Shown in pieces: positions 1 to 6,408 of a stretch of 6,408 nt of DNA (positions are counted from its first letter, which is position 1; each line of letters opens with the position of its first letter). The notes below the pieces were generated by a model. That model was given only the letters and a program-made list of their open reading frames with translations, searched no databases and was not told where the DNA came from. This stretch comes from Escherichia phage Copypasta. The position numbers and the translations under genes were made by a program. The stretch lies in the sequence record OR791786.1; one strand, 5' to 3'.

Positions 1-45
1 AATAGTGGACTCTTGTTCCAAACTGGAACAACACTCACAACTAAC
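1..45 (+). other. Plus-strand replication origin core, downstream part: 3' arm of the nick-site hairpin (gtggactc, 5..12, pairing with gagtccac at 6394..6401) and a second hairpin at 13..31 (ttgttcc / aaact / ggaacaa); pII recognition region
   Basis: Seen in sequence: inverted repeat 6394..6401 / 5..12 spanning the window junction with an 11-nt loop gttctttaata, and a perfect 7-bp stem at 13..19 / 25..31. Established knowledge: the Ff plus-origin consists of two hairpins downstream of the packaging signal and minus-origin, with pII nicking in the loop of the first. Confidence 0.85.
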
Positions 46-153
46 TCGGCCTATTCTTTTGATTTATAAGGATTTTTGTCATTTTCTGCTTACTGGTTAA
101 AAAATAAGCTGATTTAACAAATATTTAACGCGAAATTTAACAAAACATTAACG
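46..153 (+). promoter_or_regulatory. AT-rich region between the origin core and the gene II promoter, corresponding to the Ff replication enhancer (domain B); contains helically phased TTTAAC repeats
   Basis: Seen in sequence: very AT-rich tract; TTTAAC at 113..118, 124..129 and 136..141 and TTAAC at 148..152, spaced about 11-12 bp. Established knowledge: the Ff origin domain B is an AT-rich enhancer bound by IHF. Exact boundaries are approximate. Confidence 0.6.
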
Positions 154-182
154 TTTACAATTTAAATATTTGCTTATACAAT
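154..182 (+). promoter_or_regulatory. Candidate sigma-70 promoter for gene II: -35 TTTACA (154..159), 17-nt spacer, -10 TACAAT (177..182)
   Basis: Seen in sequence: near-consensus hexamers with optimal 17-nt spacing, about 45 nt upstream of the gene II ATG. Established knowledge: the gene II promoter lies in the intergenic region and the gene II mRNA leader is the target of pV translational repression. The transcription start itself is not determinable from sequence. Confidence 0.6.
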
Positions 183-225
183 CATCCTGTTTTTGGGGCT
201 TTTCTGATTATCAACCGGGGTACAT

Positions 226-1458
226 ATGATTGACATGCTAGTTTTACGATTACCGTTCATCGATTCTCTTGTTTGCTCCAGACTTTCAGGTAATGACCTG
301 ATAGCCTTTGTAGACCTCTCAAAAATAGCTACCCTCTCCGGCATGAATTTATCAGCTAGAACGGTTGAATATCATATTGACGGTGATTTGACTGTCTCCG
401 GCCTTTCTCACCCGTTTGAATCTTTGCCTACTCATTACTCCGGCATTGCATTTAAAATATATGAGGGTTCTAAAAATTTTTATCCCTGCGTTGAAATTAA
501 GGCTTCACCAGCAAAAGTATTACAGGGTCATAATGTTTTTGGTACAACCGATTTAGCTTTATGCTCTGAGGCTTTATTGCTTAATTTTGCTAACTCTCTG
601 CCTTGCCTGTATGATTTATTGGATGTTAACGCTACTACCATTAGTAGAATTGATGCCACCTTTTCAGCTCGCGCCCCAAATGAAAATATAGCTAAACAGG
701 TTATTGACCATTTGCGAAATGTATCTAATGGTCAAACTAAATCTACTCGTTCGCAGAATTGGGAATCAACTGTTACATGGAATGAAACTTCCAGACACCG
801 TACTTTAGTTGCATATTTAAAACATGTTGAACTACAGCACCAGATTCAGCAATTAAGCTCTAAGCCATCCGCAAAAATGACCTCTTATCAAAAGGAGCAA
901 TTAAAGGTACTGTCTAATCCTGACCTGTTGGAATTTGCTTCCGGTCTGGTTCGCTTTGAGGCTCGAATTAAAACGCGATATTTGAAGTCTTTCGGGCTTC
1001 CTCTTAATCTTTTTGATGCAATTCGCTTTGCTTCTGACTATAATAGACAGGGTAAAGACCTTATTTTTGATTTATGGTCATTCTCGTTTTCTGAACTGTT
1101 TAAAGCATTTGAGGGGGATTCAATGAATATTTATGACGATTCCGCAGTATTGGACGCTATCCAGTCTAAACATTTTACAATTACTCCCTCTGGCAAAACT
1201 TCCTTTGCAAAAGCCTCTCGCTATTTTGGTTTCTATCGTCGTCTGGTTAATGAGGGTTATGATAGTGTTGCTCTTACCATGCCTCGTAATTCCTTTTGGC
1301 GTTATGTATCTGCATTAGTTGAGTGCGGTATTCCTAAATCTCAATTGATGAATCTTTCCACCTGTAATAATGTTGTTCCGTTAGTTCGTTTTATTAACGT
1401 AGATTTTTCCTCCCAACGTCCTGACTGGTATAATGAGCCAGTTCTTAAAATCGCATAA
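226..1458 (+). CDS. II: Gene II protein (pII), replication initiator nickase/endonuclease for rolling-circle replication, 410 aa
   Basis: ORF 226..1458 translates to 410 aa beginning MIDMLVLRLPFIDSLVCSRLSGNDL, matching my recollection of Ff pII in sequence and length; position immediately downstream of the intergenic region. Stop TAA at 1456..1458. Confidence 0.96.
   Translation: MIDMLVLRLPFIDSLVCSRLSGNDLIAFVDLSKIATLSGMNLSARTVEYHIDGDLTVSGLSHPFESLPTHYSGIAFKIYEGSKNFYPCVEIKASPAKVLQGHNVFGTTDLALCSEALLLNFANSLPCLYDLLDVNATTISRIDATFSARAPNENIAKQVIDHLRNVSNGQTKSTRSQNWESTVTWNETSRHRTLVAYLKHVELQHQIQQLSSKPSAKMTSYQKEQLKVLSNPDLLEFASGLVRFEARIKTRYLKSFGLPLNLFDAIRFASDYNRQGKDLIFDLWSFSFSELFKAFEGDSMNIYDDSAVLDAIQSKHFTITPSGKTSFAKASRYFGFYRRLVNEGYDSVALTMPRNSFWRYVSALVECGIPKSQLMNLSTCNNVVPLVRFINVDFSSQRPDWYNEPVLKIA
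1123..1458 (+). CDS. X: Gene X protein (pX), 111 aa, translated from an in-frame internal start within gene II; identical to the C-terminal third of pII
   Basis: Seen in sequence: ATG at 1123 in frame with gene II (codon 300), preceded by a strong Shine-Dalgarno-like gagggggatt (1111..1120); product MNIYDDSAVLDAIQSKHF... is 111 aa. Established knowledge: Ff gene X is an in-frame internal restart of gene II yielding a 111-aa protein. Confidence 0.9.
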   Translation: MNIYDDSAVLDAIQSKHFTITPSGKTSFAKASRYFGFYRRLVNEGYDSVALTMPRNSFWRYVSALVECGIPKSQLMNLSTCNNVVPLVRFINVDFSSQRPDWYNEPVLKIA

Positions 1459-1469
1459 GGTAATTCAAA

Positions 1470-1733
1470 ATGATTAAAGTTGAAATTAAACCATCTCAAG
1501 CGCAATTTACTACCCGTTCTGGTGTTTCTCGTCAGGGCAAGCCTTATTCACTGAATGAGCAGCTTTGTTACGTTGATTTGGGTAATGAATATCCGGTGCT
1601 TGTCAAGATTACTCTCGACGAAGGTCAGCCAGCGTATGCGCCTGGTCTGTACACCGTGCATCTGTCCTCGTTCAAAGTTGGTCAGTTCGGTTCTCTTATG
1701 ATTGACCGTCTGCGCCTCGTTCCGGCTAAGTAA
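1470..1733 (+). CDS. V: Gene V protein (pV), single-stranded DNA-binding protein, 87 aa
   Basis: ORF 1470..1733, 87 aa, MIKVEIKPSQAQFTTRSGVSRQGKPYSLNEQLCYVDLGNEYPVLVKITLDEGQPAYAPGLYTVHLSSFKVGQFGSLMIDRLRLVPAK, matching Ff gene 5 protein as I recall it; SD-like aagg at 1457..1460. Confidence 0.97.
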   Translation: MIKVEIKPSQAQFTTRSGVSRQGKPYSLNEQLCYVDLGNEYPVLVKITLDEGQPAYAPGLYTVHLSSFKVGQFGSLMIDRLRLVPAK

Positions 1734-1734
1734 C

Positions 1735-1836
1735 ATGGAGCAGGTCGCGGATTTCGACACAATTTATCAGGCGATGATACAAATCTCCGTTGTACTTTGT
1801 TTCGCGCTTGGTATAATCGCTGGGGGTCAAAGATGA
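1735..1836 (+). CDS. VII: Gene VII protein (pVII), minor coat protein at the tip of the virion that emerges first, 33 aa
   Basis: ATG at 1735, one nucleotide after the gene V stop (taaCatg); translates to MEQVADFDTIYQAMIQISVVLCFALGIIAGGQR (33 aa); stop TGA 1834..1836. Too short for the ORF track but matches known pVII. No Shine-Dalgarno, consistent with translational coupling to gene V. Confidence 0.9.
   Translation: MEQVADFDTIYQAMIQISVVLCFALGIIAGGQR
1790..1817 (+). promoter_or_regulatory. Candidate strong sigma-70 promoter upstream of genes IX/VIII: -35 TTGTAC (1790..1795), 16-nt spacer, extended -10 TGgTATAAT (1809..1817)
   Basis: Seen in sequence: consensus TATAAT with an upstream TG (extended -10) and a reasonable -35, embedded in the gene VII coding sequence. 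Established knowledge: Ff phages have a strong promoter feeding the abundantly expressed gene VIII. The exact identity with the mapped promoter is inferred. Confidence 0.5.
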
Positions 1837-1931
1837 GTGTTTTAGTGTATTCTTTCGCCTCTTTCGTTTTAGGTTGGTGCCTTCGTAGTGGCATTACGTA
1901 TTTTACCCGTTTAATGGAAACTTCCTCATGA
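1833..1931 (+). CDS. IX: Gene IX protein (pIX), minor coat protein at the tip of the virion that emerges first, 32 aa
   Basis: ATG at 1833 overlaps the gene VII stop (aTGA); translates to MSVLVYSFASFVLGWCLRSGITYFTRLMETSS (32 aa); stop TGA 1929..1931 overlaps the gene VIII ATG. Confidence 0.9.
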   Translation: MSVLVYSFASFVLGWCLRSGITYFTRLMETSS

Positions 1932-2149
1932 AAAAGTCTTTAGTCCTCAAAGCCTCCGTAGCCGTTGCTACCCTCGTTCCTATGCTGTCTTTCGCTGCTG
2001 AGGGTGACGATCCCGCAAAAGCGGCCTTTGACTCCCTGCAAGCCTCAGCGACCGAATATATCGGTTATGCGTGGGCGATGGTTGTTGTCATTGTCGGCGC
2101 AACTATCGGTATCAAGCTGTTTAAGAAATTCACCTCGAAAGCAAGCTGA
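1928..2149 (+). CDS. VIII: Gene VIII protein (pVIII), major coat protein precursor, 73 aa (23-aa signal peptide plus 50-aa mature protein)
   Basis: ORF 1928..2149, 73 aa: MKKSLVLKASVAVATLVPMLSFA / AEGDDPAKAAFDSLQASATEYIGYAWAMVVVIVGATIGIKLFKKFTSKAS. Mature residue 12 is Asp, which I recall as the fd form (Asn in M13/f1). Confidence 0.98.
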   Translation: MKKSLVLKASVAVATLVPMLSFAAEGDDPAKAAFDSLQASATEYIGYAWAMVVVIVGATIGIKLFKKFTSKAS

Positions 2150-2164
2150 TAAACCGATACAATT

Positions 2165-2192
2165 AAAGGCTCCTTTTGGAGCCTTTTTTTTT
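2165..2192 (+). terminator. Rho-independent terminator after gene VIII (central Ff terminator): stem aaaggctcc / loop tttt / ggagccttt followed by a T-run
   Basis: Seen in sequence: GC-containing inverted repeat 2165..2173 / 2178..2186 followed by eight or more T residues (2184..2192). Established knowledge: Ff phages have a strong rho-independent terminator immediately distal to gene VIII. Confidence 0.9.
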
Positions 2193-2205
2193 GGAGATTT
2201 TCAAC

Positions 2206-3480
2206 GTGAAAAAATTATTATTCGCAATTCCTTTAGTTGTTCCTTTCTATTCTCACTCCGCTGAAACTGTTGAAAGTTGTTTAGCAAAACCTCATACAGA
2301 AAATTCATTTACTAACGTCTGGAAAGACGACAAAACTTTAGATCGTTACGCTAACTATGAGGGCTGTCTGTGGAATGCTACAGGCGTTGTGGTTTGTACT
2401 GGTGACGAAACTCAGTGTTACGGTACATGGGTTCCTATTGGGCTTGCTATCCCTGAAAATGAGGGTGGTGGCTCTGAGGGTGGCGGTTCAGAGGGTGGCG
2501 GTTCTGAGGGTGGCGGTACTAAACCTCCTGAGTACGGTGATACACCTATTCCGGGCTATACTTATATCAACCCTCTCGACGGCACTTATCCGCCTGGTAC
2601 TGAGCAAAACCCCGCTAATCCTAATCCTTCTCTTGAGGAGTCTCAGCCTCTTAATACTTTCATGTTTCAGAATAATAGGTTCCGAAATAGGCAGGGTGCA
2701 TTAACTGTTTATACGGGCACTGTTACTCAAGGCACTGACCCCGTTAAAACTTATTACCAGTACACTCCTGTATCATCAAAAGCCATGTATGACGCTTACT
2801 GGAACGGTAAATTCAGAGACTGCGCTTTCCATTCTGGCTTTAATGAGGATCCATTCGTTTGTGAATATCAAGGTCAATCGTCTGACCTGCCTCAACCTCC
2901 TGTTAATGCTGGCGGCGGCTCTGGTGGTGGTTCTGGTGGCGGCTCTGAGGGTGGTGGCTCTGAGGGTGGCGGTTCTGAGGGTGGCGACTCTGAGGGTGGC
3001 GGTTCCGGTGGTGGCTCTGGTTCCGGTGATTTTGATTATGAAAAGATGGCAAACGCTAATAAGGGGGCTATGACCGAAAATGCCGATGAAAACGCGCTAC
3101 AGTCTGACGCTAAAGGCAAACTTGATTCTGTCGCTACTGATTACGGTGCTGCTATCGACGGTTTCATTGGTGACGTTTCCGGCCTTGCTAATGGTAATGG
3201 GGCTACTGGTGATTTTGCTGGCTCTAATTCCCAAATGGCTCAAGTCGGTGACGGTGATAATTCGCCTTTAATGAATAATTTCCGTCAATATTTACCTTCT
3301 TTGCCTCAGTCGGTTGAATGTCGCCCTTATGTCTTTGGCGCTGGTAAACCATATGAGTTTTCTATTGATTGTGACAAAATAAACTTATTCCGTGGTGTCT
3401 TTGCGTTTCTTTTATATGTTGCCACCTTTATGTATGTATTTTCGACGTTTGCTAACATACTGCGTAATAAGGAGTCTTAA
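2206..3480 (+). CDS. III: Gene III protein (pIII), minor coat/adsorption protein precursor, 424 aa (18-aa signal peptide; N1 and N2 domains, two Gly-rich linkers, C-terminal anchor domain); GTG start
   Basis: Translation from GTG 2206: [18 protein letters not shown] / [62 protein letters not shown]..., ending ...[10 protein letters not shown]; 424 codons. SD GGAG at 2193..2196, 9 nt upstream of the GTG. The C-terminal [14 protein letters not shown] is the fd-type sequence as I recall it. The ORF track's ATG at 2176 lies inside the terminator hairpin and is not the start. Confidence 0.96.
2461..2520 (+). repeat. Four tandem 15-bp repeats (GAGGGTGGYGGYWCW) encoding (EGGGS)3-EGGGT, the first glycine-rich linker of pIII
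   Basis: Seen in sequence: gagggtggtggctct / gagggtggcggttca / gagggtggcggttct / gagggtggcggtact. Confidence 0.95.
2911..3027 (+). repeat. Tandem GGT/GGC-rich repeats encoding the second glycine-rich linker of pIII (GGGS and EGGGS units)
   Basis: Seen in sequence: repeated ggtggcggctct / gagggtggcggttct units; translation [39 protein letters not shown]. One unit reads GGC GAC TCT (Asp at 2986..2988) instead of the Gly codon present in the other units. Confidence 0.95.
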
Positions 3481-3482
3481 TC

Positions 3483-3821
3483 ATGCCAGTTCTTTTGGGT
3501 ATTCCGTTATTATTGCGTTTCCTCGGTTTCCTTCTGGTAACTTTGTTCGGCTATCTGCTTACTTTCCTTAAAAAGGGCTTCGGTAAGATAGCTATTGCTA
3601 TTTCATTGTTTCTTGCTCTTATTATTGGGCTTAACTCAATTCTTGTGGGTTATCTCTCTGATATTAGCGCACAATTACCCTCTGATTTTGTTCAGGGCGT
3701 TCAGTTAATTCTCCCGTCTAATGCGCTTCCCTGTTTTTATGTTATTCTCTCTGTTAAGGCTGCTATTTTCATTTTTGACGTTAAACAAAAAATCGTTTCT
3801 TATTTGGATTGGGATAAATAA
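3483..3821 (+). CDS. VI: Gene VI protein (pVI), minor coat protein at the pIII end of the virion, 112 aa
   Basis: ORF 3483..3821, 112 aa, MPVLLGIPLLLRFLGFLLVTLFGYLLTFLKKGFGKIAIAISLF...; starts 2 nt after the gene III stop. Confidence 0.96.
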   Translation: MPVLLGIPLLLRFLGFLLVTLFGYLLTFLKKGFGKIAIAISLFLALIIGLNSILVGYLSDISAQLPSDFVQGVQLILPSNALPCFYVILSVKAAIFIFDVKQKIVSYLDWDK

Positions 3822-3823
3822 AT

Positions 3824-4870
3824 ATGGCTGTTTATTTTGTAACTGGCAAATTAGGCTCTGGAAAGACGCTCGTTAGCGTTGGTAAGATTCAGGATAAAAT
3901 TGTAGCTGGGTGCAAAATAGCAACTAATCTTGATTTAAGGCTTCAAAACCTCCCGCAAGTCGGGAGGTTCGCTAAAACGCCTCGCGTTCTTAGAATACCG
4001 GATAAGCCTTCTATTTCTGATTTGCTTGCTATTGGGCGTGGTAATGATTCCTACGACGAAAATAAAAACGGTTTGCTTGTTCTTGATGAATGCGGTACTT
4101 GGTTTAATACCCGTTCATGGAATGACAAGGAAAGACAGCCGATTATTGATTGGTTTCTTCATGCTCGTAAATTGGGATGGGATATTATTTTTCTTGTTCA
4201 GGATTTATCTATTGTTGATAAACAGGCGCGTTCTGCATTAGCTGAACACGTTGTTTATTGTCGCCGTCTGGACAGAATTACTTTACCCTTTGTCGGCACT
4301 TTATATTCTCTTGTTACTGGCTCAAAAATGCCTCTGCCTAAATTACATGTTGGTGTTGTTAAATATGGTGATTCTCAATTAAGCCCTACTGTTGAGCGTT
4401 GGCTTTATACTGGTAAGAATTTATATAACGCATATGACACTAAACAGGCTTTTTCCAGTAATTATGATTCAGGTGTTTATTCATATTTAACCCCTTATTT
4501 ATCACACGGTCGGTATTTCAAACCATTAAATTTAGGTCAGAAGATGAAATTAACTAAAATATATTTGAAAAAGTTTTCTCGCGTTCTTTGTCTTGCGATA
4601 GGATTTGCATCAGCATTTACATATAGTTATATAACCCAACCTAAGCCGGAGGTTAAAAAGGTAGTCTCTCAGACCTATGATTTTGATAAATTCACTATTG
4701 ACTCTTCTCAGCGTCTTAATCTAAGCTATCGCTATGTTTTCAAGGATTCTAAGGGAAAATTAATTAATAGCGACGATTTACAGAAGCAAGGTTATTCCAT
4801 CACATATATTGATTTATGTACTGTTTCAATTAAAAAAGGTAATTCAAATGAAATTGTTAAATGTAATTAA
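3824..4870 (+). CDS. I: Gene I protein (pI), inner-membrane assembly ATPase, 348 aa, with Walker A motif GKLGSGKT near the N-terminus
   Basis: ORF 3824..4870, 348 aa, MAVYFVTGKLGSGKTLVSVGKIQDKIVAGCKIATNLDLRL...; P-loop motif GSGKT seen in the translation; starts 2 nt after the gene VI stop. Confidence 0.96.
   Translation: MAVYFVTGKLGSGKTLVSVGKIQDKIVAGCKIATNLDLRLQNLPQVGRFAKTPRVLRIPDKPSISDLLAIGRGNDSYDENKNGLLVLDECGTWFNTRSWNDKERQPIIDWFLHARKLGWDIIFLVQDLSIVDKQARSALAEHVVYCRRLDRITLPFVGTLYSLVTGSKMPLPKLHVGVVKYGDSQLSPTVERWLYTGKNLYNAYDTKQAFSSNYDSGVYSYLTPYLSHGRYFKPLNLGQKMKLTKIYLKKFSRVLCLAIGFASAFTYSYITQPKPEVKKVVSQTYDFDKFTIDSSQRLNLSYRYVFKDSKGKLINSDDLQKQGYSITYIDLCTVSIKKGNSNEIVKCN
3947..3969 (+). other. Perfect 9-bp inverted repeat with 5-nt loop (aacctcccg / caagt / cgggaggtt) inside the gene I coding sequence
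   Basis: Seen in sequence at 3947..3955 and 3961..3969; encodes QNLPQVGRF. Function is not determinable from sequence; candidates are an mRNA structural or processing element or part of the rho-dependent termination region reported within Ff gene I. Confidence 0.5.
4544..4870 (+). CDS. XI: Gene XI protein (pXI), 108 aa, in-frame internal translation start within gene I (Met241 of pI); membrane assembly protein
   Basis: Seen in sequence: ATG at 4544 in frame with gene I (codon 241), product MKLTKIYLKKFSRVLCLAIGFASAFTYSYI... is 108 aa with a hydrophobic segment. Established knowledge: Ff gene XI is an internal in-frame restart of gene I giving a 108-aa protein. Confidence 0.85.
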   Translation: MKLTKIYLKKFSRVLCLAIGFASAFTYSYITQPKPEVKKVVSQTYDFDKFTIDSSQRLNLSYRYVFKDSKGKLINSDDLQKQGYSITYIDLCTVSIKKGNSNEIVKCN

Positions 4871-6128
4871 TTTTGTTTTCTTGATGTTTGTTTCATCATC
4901 TTCTTTTGCTCAAGTAATTGAAATGAATAATTCGCCTCTGCGCGATTTCGTTACTTGGTATTCAAAGCAAACAGGTGAATCTGTTATTGTCTCACCTGAT
5001 GTTAAAGGTACTGTGACTGTATATTCCTCTGACGTTAAGCCTGAAAATTTACGCAATTTCTTTATCTCTGTTTTACGTGCTAATAATTTTGATATGGTTG
5101 GCTCTAATCCTTCCATAATTCAGAAATATAACCCAAATAGTCAGGATTATATTGATGAATTGCCATCATCTGATATTCAGGAATATGATGATAATTCCGC
5201 TCCTTCTGGTGGTTTCTTTGTTCCGCAAAATGATAATGTTACTCAAACATTTAAAATTAATAACGTTCGCGCAAAGGATTTAATAAGGGTTGTAGAATTG
5301 TTTGTTAAATCTAATACATCTAAATCCTCAAATGTATTATCTGTTGATGGTTCTAACTTATTAGTAGTTAGCGCCCCTAAAGATATTTTAGATAACCTTC
5401 CGCAATTTCTTTCGACTGTTGATTTGCCAACTGACCAGATATTGATTGAAGGATTAATTTTCGAGGTTCAGCAAGGTGATGCTTTAGATTTTTCCTTTGC
5501 TGCTGGCTCTCAGCGCGGCACTGTTGCTGGTGGTGTTAATACTGACCGCCTCACCTCTGTTTTATCTTCTGCGGGTGGCTCGTTCGGTATTTTTAACGGC
5601 GATGTTTTAGGGCTATCAGTTCGCGCATTAAAGACTAATAGCCATTCAAAAATATTGTCTGTGCCTCGTATTCTTACGCTTTCAGGTCAGAAGGGTTCTA
5701 TTTCTGTTGGCCAGAATGTCCCTTTTATTACTGGTCGTGTAACTGGTGAATCTGCCAATGTAAATAATCCATTTCAGACAATTGAGCGTCAAAATGTTGG
5801 TATTTCTATGAGTGTTTTTCCGGTTGCAATGGCTGGCGGTAATATTGTTCTGGATATTACTAGCAAGGCCGATAGTTTGAGTTCTTCTACTCAGGCAAGT
5901 GATGTTATTACTAATCAAAGAAGTATTGCGACAACGGTTAATTTGCGTGATGGACAGACTCTTTTACTCGGTGGCCTCACTGATTATAAAAACACTTCTC
6001 AGGATTCTGGCGTACCGTTCCTGTCTAAAATCCCTTTAATCGGCCTCCTGTTTAGCTCCCGCTCTGATTCTAACGAGGAAAGCACGTTATACGTGCTCGT
6101 CAAAGCAACCATAGTACGCGCCCTGTAG
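4848..6128 (+). CDS. IV: Gene IV protein (pIV), outer-membrane secretin for phage export, 426-aa precursor with a 21-aa signal peptide
   Basis: ATG at 4848 preceded by SD-like aaggt (4836..4840); translation MKLLNVINFVFLMFVSSSSFA / QVIEMNNSPLRDFVTWYSKQ..., ending ...YVLVKATIVRAL; overlaps the 3' end of gene I by 23 nt in a different frame. The ORF track's upstream ATG at 4809 would add 13 residues in front of the signal peptide and is not the start. Confidence 0.95.
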   Translation: MKLLNVINFVFLMFVSSSSFAQVIEMNNSPLRDFVTWYSKQTGESVIVSPDVKGTVTVYSSDVKPENLRNFFISVLRANNFDMVGSNPSIIQKYNPNSQDYIDELPSSDIQEYDDNSAPSGGFFVPQNDNVTQTFKINNVRAKDLIRVVELFVKSNTSKSSNVLSVDGSNLLVVSAPKDILDNLPQFLSTVDLPTDQILIEGLIFEVQQGDALDFSFAAGSQRGTVAGGVNTDRLTSVLSSAGGSFGIFNGDVLGLSVRALKTNSHSKILSVPRILTLSGQKGSISVGQNVPFITGRVTGESANVNNPFQTIERQNVGISMSVFPVAMAGGNIVLDITSKADSLSSSTQASDVITNQRSIATTVNLRDGQTLLLGGLTDYKNTSQDSGVPFLSKIPLIGLLFSSRSDSNEESTLYVLVKATIVRAL

Positions 6129-6206
6129 CGGCGCATTAAGCGCGGCGGGTGTGGTGGTTACGCGCAGCGTGACCGCTACACTTGCCAGCGCCCTAGCGCC
6201 CGCTCC
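6128..6206 (+). other. Packaging signal (morphogenetic signal) imperfect hairpin immediately after gene IV; may also contribute to transcription termination
   Basis: Seen in sequence: GC-rich region with extensive self-complementarity (for example gtagcgg ... ccgctac, and gcgcattaagcgcggcggg with gcgccctagcgcccgc partners). Established knowledge: the Ff packaging signal is a roughly 78-nt hairpin at the start of the intergenic region. Coordinates are approximate. Confidence 0.7.
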
Positions 6207-6390
6207 TTTCGCTTTCTTCCCTTCCTTTCTCGCCACGTTTGCCGGCTTTCCCCGTCAAGCTCTAAATCGGGGGCTCCCTTTAGGGTTCCGATTTAGTGCT
6301 TTACGGCACCTCGACCCCAAAAAACTTGATTTGGGTGATGGTTCACGTAGTGGGCCATCGCCCTGATAGACGGTTTTTCGCTCTTTGCCG
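6207..6390 (+). other. Minus-strand (complementary-strand) origin region: hairpins recognised by host RNA polymerase to make the RNA primer on the viral single strand
   Basis: Seen in sequence: multiple inverted repeats, for example ccccgtcaagctctaaatcgggg (stem ccccg/cgggg) and gggccatcgccc. Established knowledge: the Ff minus-origin lies between the packaging signal and the plus-origin. Boundaries are approximate. Confidence 0.65.
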
Positions 6391-6393
6391 TTG

Positions 6394-6408
6394 GAGTCCA
6401 CGTTCTTT
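6394..6408 (+). other. Plus-strand origin, upstream part: 5' arm (gagtccac) and loop of the nick-site hairpin; the presumed pII nick position coincides with the window end and start (ttcttt | aatagtgg)
   Basis: Seen in sequence: gagtccac at 6394..6401 is the reverse complement of gtggactc at 5..12 and the loop gttctttaata spans the junction. Established knowledge: pII nicks the viral strand within this loop; the exact phosphodiester bond is from memory and should be verified. Confidence 0.8.

Follow-up and report, generated by a model that had tools for sequence, protein, structure and literature searches.

A complete 6408-nt Ff phage genome of the fd lineage, written from the pII nick site

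The closest described relatives of the DNA that we analyzed are Ff phages. FfIris (PP430148.1) is a wastewater isolate obtained on E. coli MG1655 + F, and Copypasta (OR791786) is a Rhine River isolate with a genome of 6408 nt (PMC10868210). A filamentous virion with single-stranded DNA (ssDNA), dependence on the F pilus, and non-lytic release have been shown experimentally both for Copypasta (PMC10868210) and for the FfIris series (bioRxiv 10.1101/2023.03.19.532758). The genomes of FfIris and of fd strain 478 (J02451 / NC_025824) also have 6408 nt. In contrast, f1 and M13 (V00606, NC_003287) have 6407 nt, with the same eleven genes, gene order, and origin architecture.

The window (the whole stretch of 6408 nt that we analyzed) is, with very little doubt, the complete circular genome of a natural fd-lineage Ff strain, given as the plus (viral) strand and written from the first base 3' of the pII nick. 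By megablast, 30 Ff records cover at least 80% of the window; the top match is FfIris (99.7% identity), followed by fd (99.2%). When the circle was rotated and aligned globally, FfIris differed from the window by 22 substitutions (99.66% identity) and fd strain 478 by 53, with no indels in either case, while f1 and M13 differed by 180 and 188 substitutions, respectively, plus one 1-nt indel each. Identity to f1 and M13 is about 97% (for M13, 188 substitutions and one gap over 6408 nt, or 97.1%). This is above the usual nucleotide-identity cut-off of >95% for species, and on that measure the window is assigned to Inovirus M13 (Ff: fd, f1, M13). The preliminary description had read the sequence as one complete, circularly permuted genome of fd type with the same length as fd. 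The alignments bear this out: the genome, of about 6.4 kb, is colinear with the Ff type genomes over its full length, and large insertions, deletions, and foreign (non-Ff) segments are absent. Given its near-identity to these relatives, the phage would likewise be expected to have an ssDNA filamentous virion, to depend on the F pilus, and to be released without lysis. It is an ordinary Ff genome of a kind that is already known, a natural strain variant with nothing new.

The preliminary description also listed eleven genes in the canonical order with products of 410/111/87/33/32/73/424/112/348/108/426 amino acids, and the open reading frames have exactly these lengths. All eleven genes (II-X-V-VII-IX-VIII-III-VI-I-XI-IV) are intact, lie on the + strand, and have no internal stops, and their positions agree with the annotations in the fd, M13, and FfIris records.

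226-1458, +: gene II, pII, 410 aa, rolling-circle nickase/initiator (Pfam Phage_CRI, 2e-77; G2P_X_C, 4e-35)
1123-1458, +: gene X, pX, 111 aa, from an internal ATG at 1123 in frame with gene II (same position annotated in fd, M13, and FfIris)
1470-1733, +: gene V, pV, 87 aa, ssDNA-binding protein (Pfam Phage_DNA_bind, 1e-42)
1735-1836, +: gene VII, pVII, 33 aa, minor coat protein (Pfam Inovirus_G7P_2, 1e-21)
1833-1931, +: gene IX, pIX, 32 aa, minor coat protein (position and length of the annotated fd gene IX)
1928-2149, +: gene VIII, pVIII precursor, 73 aa, major coat protein (Pfam Phage_coatGP8, 8e-28)
2206-3480, +: gene III, pIII, 424 aa, GTG start, pilus/TolA attachment, two Gly-rich linkers (Pfam Phage_Coat_A, 6e-66)
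3483-3821, +: gene VI, pVI, 112 aa, minor coat protein (Pfam DUF5455, 4e-35)
3824-4870, +: gene I, pI, 348 aa, Zot-family assembly ATPase (Pfam Zot, 2e-53)
4544-4870, +: gene XI, pXI, 108 aa, from an internal ATG at 4544 in frame with gene I (same position annotated in FfIris)
4848-6128, +: gene IV, pIV, 426 aa, outer-membrane secretin (Pfam Secretin, 5e-44; GspD N0; Secretin_N)

We scanned the nine distinct proteins of the window against Pfam, and eight of them matched the expected families, all above the curated cut-offs. The exception was pIX (32 aa), for which there was no Pfam match. Because the sole difference in gene IX from either fd or FfIris is a synonymous change at 1907 (relative to FfIris), the pIX protein is identical to theirs. 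Exact protein look-ups matched pII to Copypasta (WPH57059.1), pI to fd G1P, the pVIII precursor to CAPSD_BPF1/fd, and pIV to FfIris, FfLilac, and Copypasta; pI is likewise shared with FfIris and with Copypasta. Residue 12 of mature pVIII is Asp, as in fd and f1, whereas it is Asn in M13 (N35D relative to M13 in precursor numbering).

Several features place the window in the fd lineage. It has an extra A at 3822, between genes VI and I and just 5' of gene I, which among the aligned genomes is common to fd and FfIris only and which explains why fd-type genomes have 6408 rather than 6407 nt; f1 and M13 lack it. Its origin carries the fd-type repeat CACAACTAACTCGG where the f1/M13 type has CAACCCTATCTCGG. 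Its nearest neighbors are also of fd type, with 22 substitutions for FfIris and 53 for fd as compared to roughly 180-200 for f1/M13-type genomes. (For FfLilac we counted 46, which is approximate as it covers only the correctly aligned part of that genome.)

Coding sequence accounts for 5831 nt (91%) of the window, and the remaining 577 nt fall into seven non-coding segments: the main intergenic region (225 + 280 nt), and then segments of 56, 11, 2, 2, and 1 nt. All seven correspond to known Ff elements, in keeping with the earlier statement that no sequence is left over for an undescribed system. This negative result, a textbook Ff genome that is fully explained, is the main value of the analysis.

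1-225, +: right part of the main intergenic region, with the plus origin 3' of the nick (identical to fd J02451 throughout)
5-31, +: hairpin D right arm (5-12) and hairpin E (13-31; 13-20 pairs with 24-31), then a putative pII-binding/enhancer region of fd type (from folds)
2165-2196, +: intrinsic terminator 3' of gene VIII, with a 9-bp stem, a 4-nt loop, and a T run (the highest-ranked terminator-like site)
6130-6200, +: hairpin A, long and imperfect, with a 20-bp core stem (from the DNA fold of the intergenic region)
6252-6367, +: hairpins B (6252-6306) and C (6329-6367), presumed minus-strand origin (from the DNA fold)
6394-6408, +: hairpin D left arm and most of its loop (from the DNA fold of the joined ends), with the pII nick between 6408 and 1

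Folding the DNA recovered all of the hairpins A to E. Hairpin A, which we take to be the packaging signal of established Ff knowledge, is unchanged in all seven of the correctly rotated references (FfLilac was excluded). Hairpins B and C presumably form the minus-strand origin, where host RNA polymerase would make the primer. Homologous copies of the B/C hairpins, with a compensatory change, are present in other replicons. A B/C hairpin element of Ff type, a putative priming signal, lies 3' of repA in IncFII plasmids. The terminator at 2165-2196 is, we assume, the known Ff central terminator, and a site resembling the gene II promoter (TTTACA-17-TACAAT) lies at 154-182. No Rfam family reached its gathering score in a scan of the whole window, which is expected because Ff origins are DNA elements.

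The ends of the window meet within the plus-strand origin. As the preliminary description had noticed, the 15 nt at the end (GAGTCCACGTTCTTT) and the 12 nt at the start (AATAGTGGACTC) form the arms and loop of the nick hairpin: in the fold of the joined ends, 6394-6401 pairs with 5-12 to give 8 bp around an 11-nt loop (6402-6408 plus 1-4). Hairpin E follows directly 3' of the nick hairpin in this fold (z = -4.3; none of 200 shuffles was as stable). The origin made by joining the ends is contiguous and agrees in alignment with eight reference genomes, and the nick sequence TTCTTT/AATAGT (the slash marks the nick, which is annotated in J02451) is present in the main intergenic region. (In FfLilac, the nick hairpin differs from the window's, with natural covariation of the closing pair of hairpin D.) The nick core CTTT/AATAGTGGACTCTTGTTCCA is common to Ff phages and phasyl plasmids. 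For the elements within 1-225 (plus origin, pII-binding and enhancer region) we use the labels of the established Ff literature, which we presume to apply here. Bases 1-169 of the window, which are identical in fd, also occur as an exact piece in a "phasyl" mini-replicon from sewage Klebsiella (K. variicola KVTMDU, p14_KVTMDU; NZ_CP151201), where they interrupt its nick site; this phasyl-fd recombinant may be real or may be an artefact of assembly.

Base 1 of the window corresponds to nt 5782 of fd, which is annotated in J02451 as the rep_origin "origin of viral strand synthesis," so the window is cut exactly at the pII nick. The boundaries had been described as an artefact of linearization "at or near" this site; they are indeed a matter of representation and not of biology, and "at or near" can be sharpened to exactly at the nick. 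Under arbitrary linearization, the start would coincide with the nick with a chance of 1 in 6408, which implies that it was either picked deliberately or derived from nicked or unit-length molecules. The second option would make the boundary a pair of real molecular ends, from sequencing of pII-nicked replicative form or of unit-length linear plus strands. Besides the exact coincidence, this is favored by the starts of the other public Ff records, as none of the eight that we compared begins at the nick (the first base is at window 628 for fd, f1, and M13 and at 6129 for the FfIris series). However, the start is accounted for just as well if the sequence was deliberately rotated to the annotated origin, and assembled contigs of the identical genome break at other positions. 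We consider real ends unlikely.

These contigs come from the Logan assemblies of SRR33432467 and SRR33432470 (contigs L019 and L020). Each has 6438 nt with a 30-nt terminal overlap, and each rotates to a circle of 6408 nt that matches the window at 100% identity and reads across the junction from 6408 to 1; their own breaks are at window 5395 and 5595. Circularity is thus seen both in the contiguous origin that the window's ends form and in the terminal redundancy of these contigs. The contigs prove the circular closure and the private alleles described below, but the two runs may share the window's isolates, so they do not amount to an independent biological occurrence.

Could the window instead be a unit taken from something larger (a tandem multimer or an integrated copy), or a chimera assembled from a mixture of Ff strains? 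Its alleles are shared in a mosaic fashion, with fd at 2469-2487 and with FfIris over the greater part of gene IV. However, shared ancestry or natural recombination among co-circulating Ff phages would produce such a mosaic just as readily, the ends close seamlessly, and the identical circle was assembled from two separate runs. Also, no complete E. coli genome or PLSDB plasmid contains more than 8% of the window; searches of these two collections returned f1-origin and vector fragments only and no full Ff copy. We therefore regard a larger or chimeric source as very improbable and retain the reading of a complete circular genome.

Although the lineage implied by "fd-type" is correct, the window is not reference fd. 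The laboratory genome (strain 478) does have the same length, the same extra A at 3822, and an identical origin region (1-225), but the alignment with J02451/NC_025824 shows 53 substitutions, 24 of them in gene IV; a copy of fd in IMG/VR (L012) has the same 53 differences; and FfIris is closer. Identity with reference fd is refuted by the alignment, and there is next to no chance that the window, a distinct strain, represents it. The differences from fd comprise 42 synonymous changes, 7 intergenic changes, and 4 amino-acid changes (from fd to the window: E249K in pII, G261D in pIII, and I87N and V312I in pIV), and none of the 53 lies in a hairpin stem. With 42 of 53 changes synonymous and the stems spared, this pattern marks the lineage as functional and subject to purifying selection. 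The 22 differences from FfIris comprise 15 synonymous, 3 intergenic, and 4 amino-acid changes (from FfIris to the window: R83K in pII, G28D in the pVIII precursor, and E215D and G261D in pIII). The fd lineage is still in circulation, with a divergence of around 0.3-0.8% that is nearly all synonymous.

An engineered Ff derivative (a display vector, helper phage, or phagemid) can be dismissed as a practical matter: public data abound in Ff backbones and f1-origin blocks and vector-like matches are many, but the window aligns to wild-type fd without indels, it carries neither a marker nor a second origin nor any foreign segment, all of its bases align to natural isolates, and its closest relatives come from wastewater and a river.

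The steps of the Ff life cycle are established biology, and near-identity suggests that they would apply to this natural strain as well. pIII would bind the tip of the F pilus and then TolA, and the ssDNA would get into the cell, where priming by host RNA polymerase at hairpins B and C would lead to the double-stranded replicative form. pII would then nick the plus strand in the hairpin D loop, between window positions 6408 and 1, drive rolling-circle synthesis, and reseal unit-length circles. The ssDNA would be coated by pV, with hairpin A left exposed as the putative packaging signal. Finally, pI/pXI and the pIV secretin would extrude the filament without lysis of the cell, as it gains pVII/pIX, thousands of pVIII subunits, and lastly pIII/pVI.

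We found nothing useful in the literature on "phasyl" or on a priming signal of Ff type in IncFII plasmids. We offer only tentatively the compound proposal that the window represents a wild strain of the fd lineage that has yet to be catalogued and that Ff phages and phasyl plasmids exchange DNA in nature via initiator-mediated cleavage and joining at the nick core; taken as a whole, it is possible rather than probable.

A minor value of the window is that it adds one wild fd-lineage genotype with private alleles, including G261D in the second Gly-rich linker of pIII (nt 2987). The exact pIII sequence has no record in a collection of 15 billion proteins, with either plausible start (GTG or TTG) read as Met, so the pIII of Copypasta is probably different. 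Exact-pattern searches found the context of G261D in neither IMG/VR nor the JGI metagenome contigs, and found the context of the private alleles 6382T/6388C nowhere in IMG/VR. (In a check of alleles with fuzzy regular expressions, we disregarded columns 2490 and 2987, which gave false calls because both lie in repeated Gly-linker sequence.) G261D is also present in both Logan contigs. A paper on methods for sewage phages describes two identical isolates with 99.66% identity to FfIris (PMC12648497). The window differs from FfIris to the same extent (22/6408), but a link between these isolates and the window is a guess.

By near-identity over its whole length, the window is already known: it is a variant, at strain level, of a phage that ranks among the most thoroughly studied. 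When we compared it by megablast with 50,697 phage records, 30 Ff records covered at least 80% of it, and the top matches were the wastewater isolate FfIris (PP430148, 99.7%) and fd strain 478 (J02451/NC_025824, 99.2%). References were then rotated to the window start and aligned globally.

Differences between the window and rotated Ff references
FfIris: 22 substitutions, no indels
fd: 53 substitutions, no indels
f1: 180 substitutions, one 1-nt indel
M13: 188 substitutions, one 1-nt indel
FfAmethyst: 199 substitutions, indels of 1 nt
FfViolet: 197 substitutions, indels of 20 nt
FfLavender: 595 substitutions, indels of 4 nt

The absence of indels against fd and FfIris bears out the proposal, made in the preliminary description, that the window represents a single complete fd-type Ff genome in circularly permuted form. 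The alignment to fd, f1 and M13 that it had suggested revealed no inserted, deleted or non-Ff segment. A single base, the A at 3822 between genes VI and I, accounts for the fd-type length of 6408 nt versus 6407 nt.

All eleven Ff genes lie in canonical order on one strand with no internal stops. Every length given in the preliminary description was exact, according to the ORF list and direct translation.

Genes and intergenic elements of the window
226-1458, + strand: gene II, 410 aa
1123-1458, + strand: gene X, 111 aa
1470-1733, + strand: gene V, 87 aa
1735-1836, + strand: gene VII, 33 aa
1833-1931, + strand: gene IX, 32 aa
1928-2149, + strand: gene VIII, 73 aa
2206-3480, + strand: gene III, 424 aa, GTG start
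3483-3821, + strand: gene VI, 112 aa
3824-4870, + strand: gene I, 348 aa
4544-4870, + strand: gene XI, 108 aa
4848-6128, + strand: gene IV, 426 aa
154-182: promoter-like site ahead of gene II (promoter scan)
2165-2186 plus T run: strong intrinsic terminator after gene VIII (terminator scan)
6130-6200: hairpin A, packaging signal (this and the following from the fold of the 505-nt intergenic region)
6252-6306: hairpin B, minus-strand origin
6329-6367: hairpin C, minus-strand origin
Spanning the joined ends: hairpins D and E, plus-strand origin

Eight of the 9 distinct proteins matched the expected Pfam families far above the curated cut-off (Phage_CRI with G2P_X_C, Phage_DNA_bind, Inovirus_G7P_2, Phage_coatGP8, Phage_Coat_A, DUF5455 for pVI, Zot, and Secretin with N0/Secretin_N). 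The Pfam search gave no model match for pIX (32 aa), which is identical to fd pIX because the sole change in gene IX (at 1907, relative to FfIris) is synonymous. Coding sequence occupies 5831 nt (91%), and the rest is the main intergenic region (225 + 280 nt) and segments of 56, 11, 2, 2 and 1 nt, so the earlier statement that nothing is left over holds. The total counts of terminator and promoter sites in the window were not above those in shuffled sequence; therefore, the gene VIII terminator and the gene II promoter-like site are identified by position, not statistically.

Base 1 of the window aligns with fd nt 5782, which is annotated in J02451 as rep_origin, "origin of viral strand synthesis," so the base that opens the window lies immediately 3' of the pII nick. 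When the joined ends were folded as single-stranded DNA, 6394-6401 (GAGTCCAC) paired with 5-12 (GTGGACTC) to form hairpin D, with an 11-nt loop (GTTCTTT, then AATA after the join), and hairpin E (13-20/24-31) followed directly. The fold had a z-score of -4.3 and none of 200 shuffles folded equally well. This fold, and a junction sequence that is unbroken in all 8 reference genomes, confirm the earlier claim that the window's ends jointly form the plus-origin nick hairpin. FfLilac (PP430150), aligned to 6394-6408 and 1-12, has the left arm GAGTCCAAC and the right arm ATTGGACTC, with A-T in place of the closing C-G pair and a loop that is one base longer. The swap of the closing pair is a small natural covariation, or compensatory change, and supports hairpin D.

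The window starts at the pII nick to the base, which has a 1 in 6408 chance under arbitrary linearisation, and 0 of 8 compared public Ff records start there: the fd, f1 and M13 records start at window 628 (a HincII site), and those of the FfIris series start immediately past the stop codon of gene IV (window 6129, for the records with a determined rotation). This suggests that the start was either chosen deliberately, by rotation, or reflects the physical ends of nicked or unit-length molecules. Under both explanations, the boundary is not biological, as originally proposed.

The exact pII protein is already on record, and among the contigs encoding it are two from Logan assemblies of public runs, SRR33432467_430 and SRR33432470_5766. 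Both are 6438 nt long and have a direct repeat of 30 nt at their ends, which implies a unit length of 6408, and after rotation both units are base-for-base identical to the window. Because these contigs break at window 5395 and 5595, both read through the junction from 6408 to 1, which independently proves the circle. No complete E. coli genome and no PLSDB plasmid contained more than 8% of the window, so nothing points to integration or to a larger surrounding sequence.

The window is not the fd reference itself, given the 53 differences: 42 are synonymous, 7 are intergenic (none within a hairpin stem), and 4 change amino acids (from fd to the window, E249K in pII, G261D in pIII, and I87N and V312I in pIV). 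The 22 differences from FfIris comprise 15 synonymous, 3 intergenic and 4 amino-acid changes (R83K in pII, G28D in the pVIII precursor, and E215D and G261D in pIII). This strong synonymous excess is the pattern of a functional lineage under purifying selection, unlike sequencing error. Nine alleles are missing from all 8 references (1185T, 2490A, 2874T, 2987A, 3755T, 5579C, 5822G, 6240T and 6382T); the identical Logan units confirm them, and 5579C is also in a related Logan contig (L021). The G-to-A change at 2987 (gene III codon 261, G261D) turns the third EGGGS unit of the second glycine-rich linker of pIII into EGGDS; it is carried by both window-identical contigs and is probably neutral. 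The exact pIII protein was absent from a collection of 15 billion proteins.

Copypasta was described as a 6408-nt Rhine River isolate that was demonstrated to be filamentous and F-dependent (PMC10868210), and its pII, pI and pIV proteins on record are the window's. A 2025 methods paper reported two identical sewage isolates, with no data deposited, at 99.66% to FfIris (PMC12648497). The window's 22 differences in 6408 nt give the same value, but a link to those isolates is only a guess.

Given the near-identity to fd, the window would be expected to follow the textbook Ff cycle. From established knowledge of Ff phages, pIII would attach first to the F pilus and next to TolA; hairpins B and C would be where host RNA polymerase primes synthesis of the complementary strand; and pII would nick between 6408 and 1, drive rolling-circle replication and reseal unit circles. 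pX and pV would regulate replication and sequester single-stranded DNA, hairpin A would direct packaging, and the filament, coated by pVII/pIX, pVIII and pIII/pVI, would be extruded via pI/pXI and the pIV secretin.

Relatives of the Ff origin occur in other replicons. NZ_CP151201.1 (plasmid p14_KVTMDU), from Klebsiella variicola in sewage, is a 1452-nt "phasyl" arp replicon; phasyl is usually 1283-1284 nt (as in NZ_CP149236, ~95% identical). Phasyl natively has hairpins D and E and the same nick core as Ff, and its Rep belongs to Pfam REP_ORF2-G2P, not to Phage_CRI like pII. At 1067-1235, NZ_CP151201.1 has an insert of 169 nt with 100% identity to bases 1-169 of the window and of rotated fd. 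The insert opens exactly at the nick and is flanked by phasyl's own left half (GTCCACGCTGTTT, up to the nick) and right half (AATAGTGGACTCTTTTTCCATATTGGAACA, from the nick on). This looks like recombination between an fd-type phage and phasyl at the rolling-circle nick site. It is known from this one record alone, and an assembly artefact is possible.

IncFII plasmids have a homologue of hairpins B and C (window 6254-6365) about 500-700 nt downstream of repA, presumably a shared single-strand priming signal of the RNA polymerase type. E. coli plasmid NZ_CP059839 (L014 2501-2618) matches at 93 of 121 nt across both hairpins, and its stem has changed in a compensatory way, from TAAATCG/CGATTTA to TGAATCG/CGATTCA; hairpin C is identical (33/33 nt) in ~180 Salmonella pSLT-like virulence plasmids (pSLT, NC_016855, L013 2501-2533). 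At the DNA level, Erwinia phages PEar1, PEar2, PEar4 and PEar6 have only the B-C block in common with the window, at ~83% (~6343-6468 of PEar1, MT901797, matches 6253-6379). The same is true of K. pneumoniae plasmid p4 (NZ_CP132687, 6.8 kb; 5804-5929, ~83%), which is annotated with a set of inovirus genes (coat, attachment, Zot and secretin); it looks like a phage replicative form that was deposited as a plasmid.

Blocks of ~456 nt, ~95% identical to 6116-6408 plus 1-163 and of the f1 type rather than the fd type, are found in public records labelled Lambdavirus lambda (OR474059), Listeria phage LM 4-14-1 (3074 nt), Escherichia phage ECO95 1-6-1 (2111 nt), in two IMG/VR contigs (L010 and L011), and in small "plasmids" of Micromonospora, Ruficoccus, Staphylococcus, Aeromonas, Mucilaginibacter and Proteus. 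These are most likely phagemid-vector sequence or engineered constructs.
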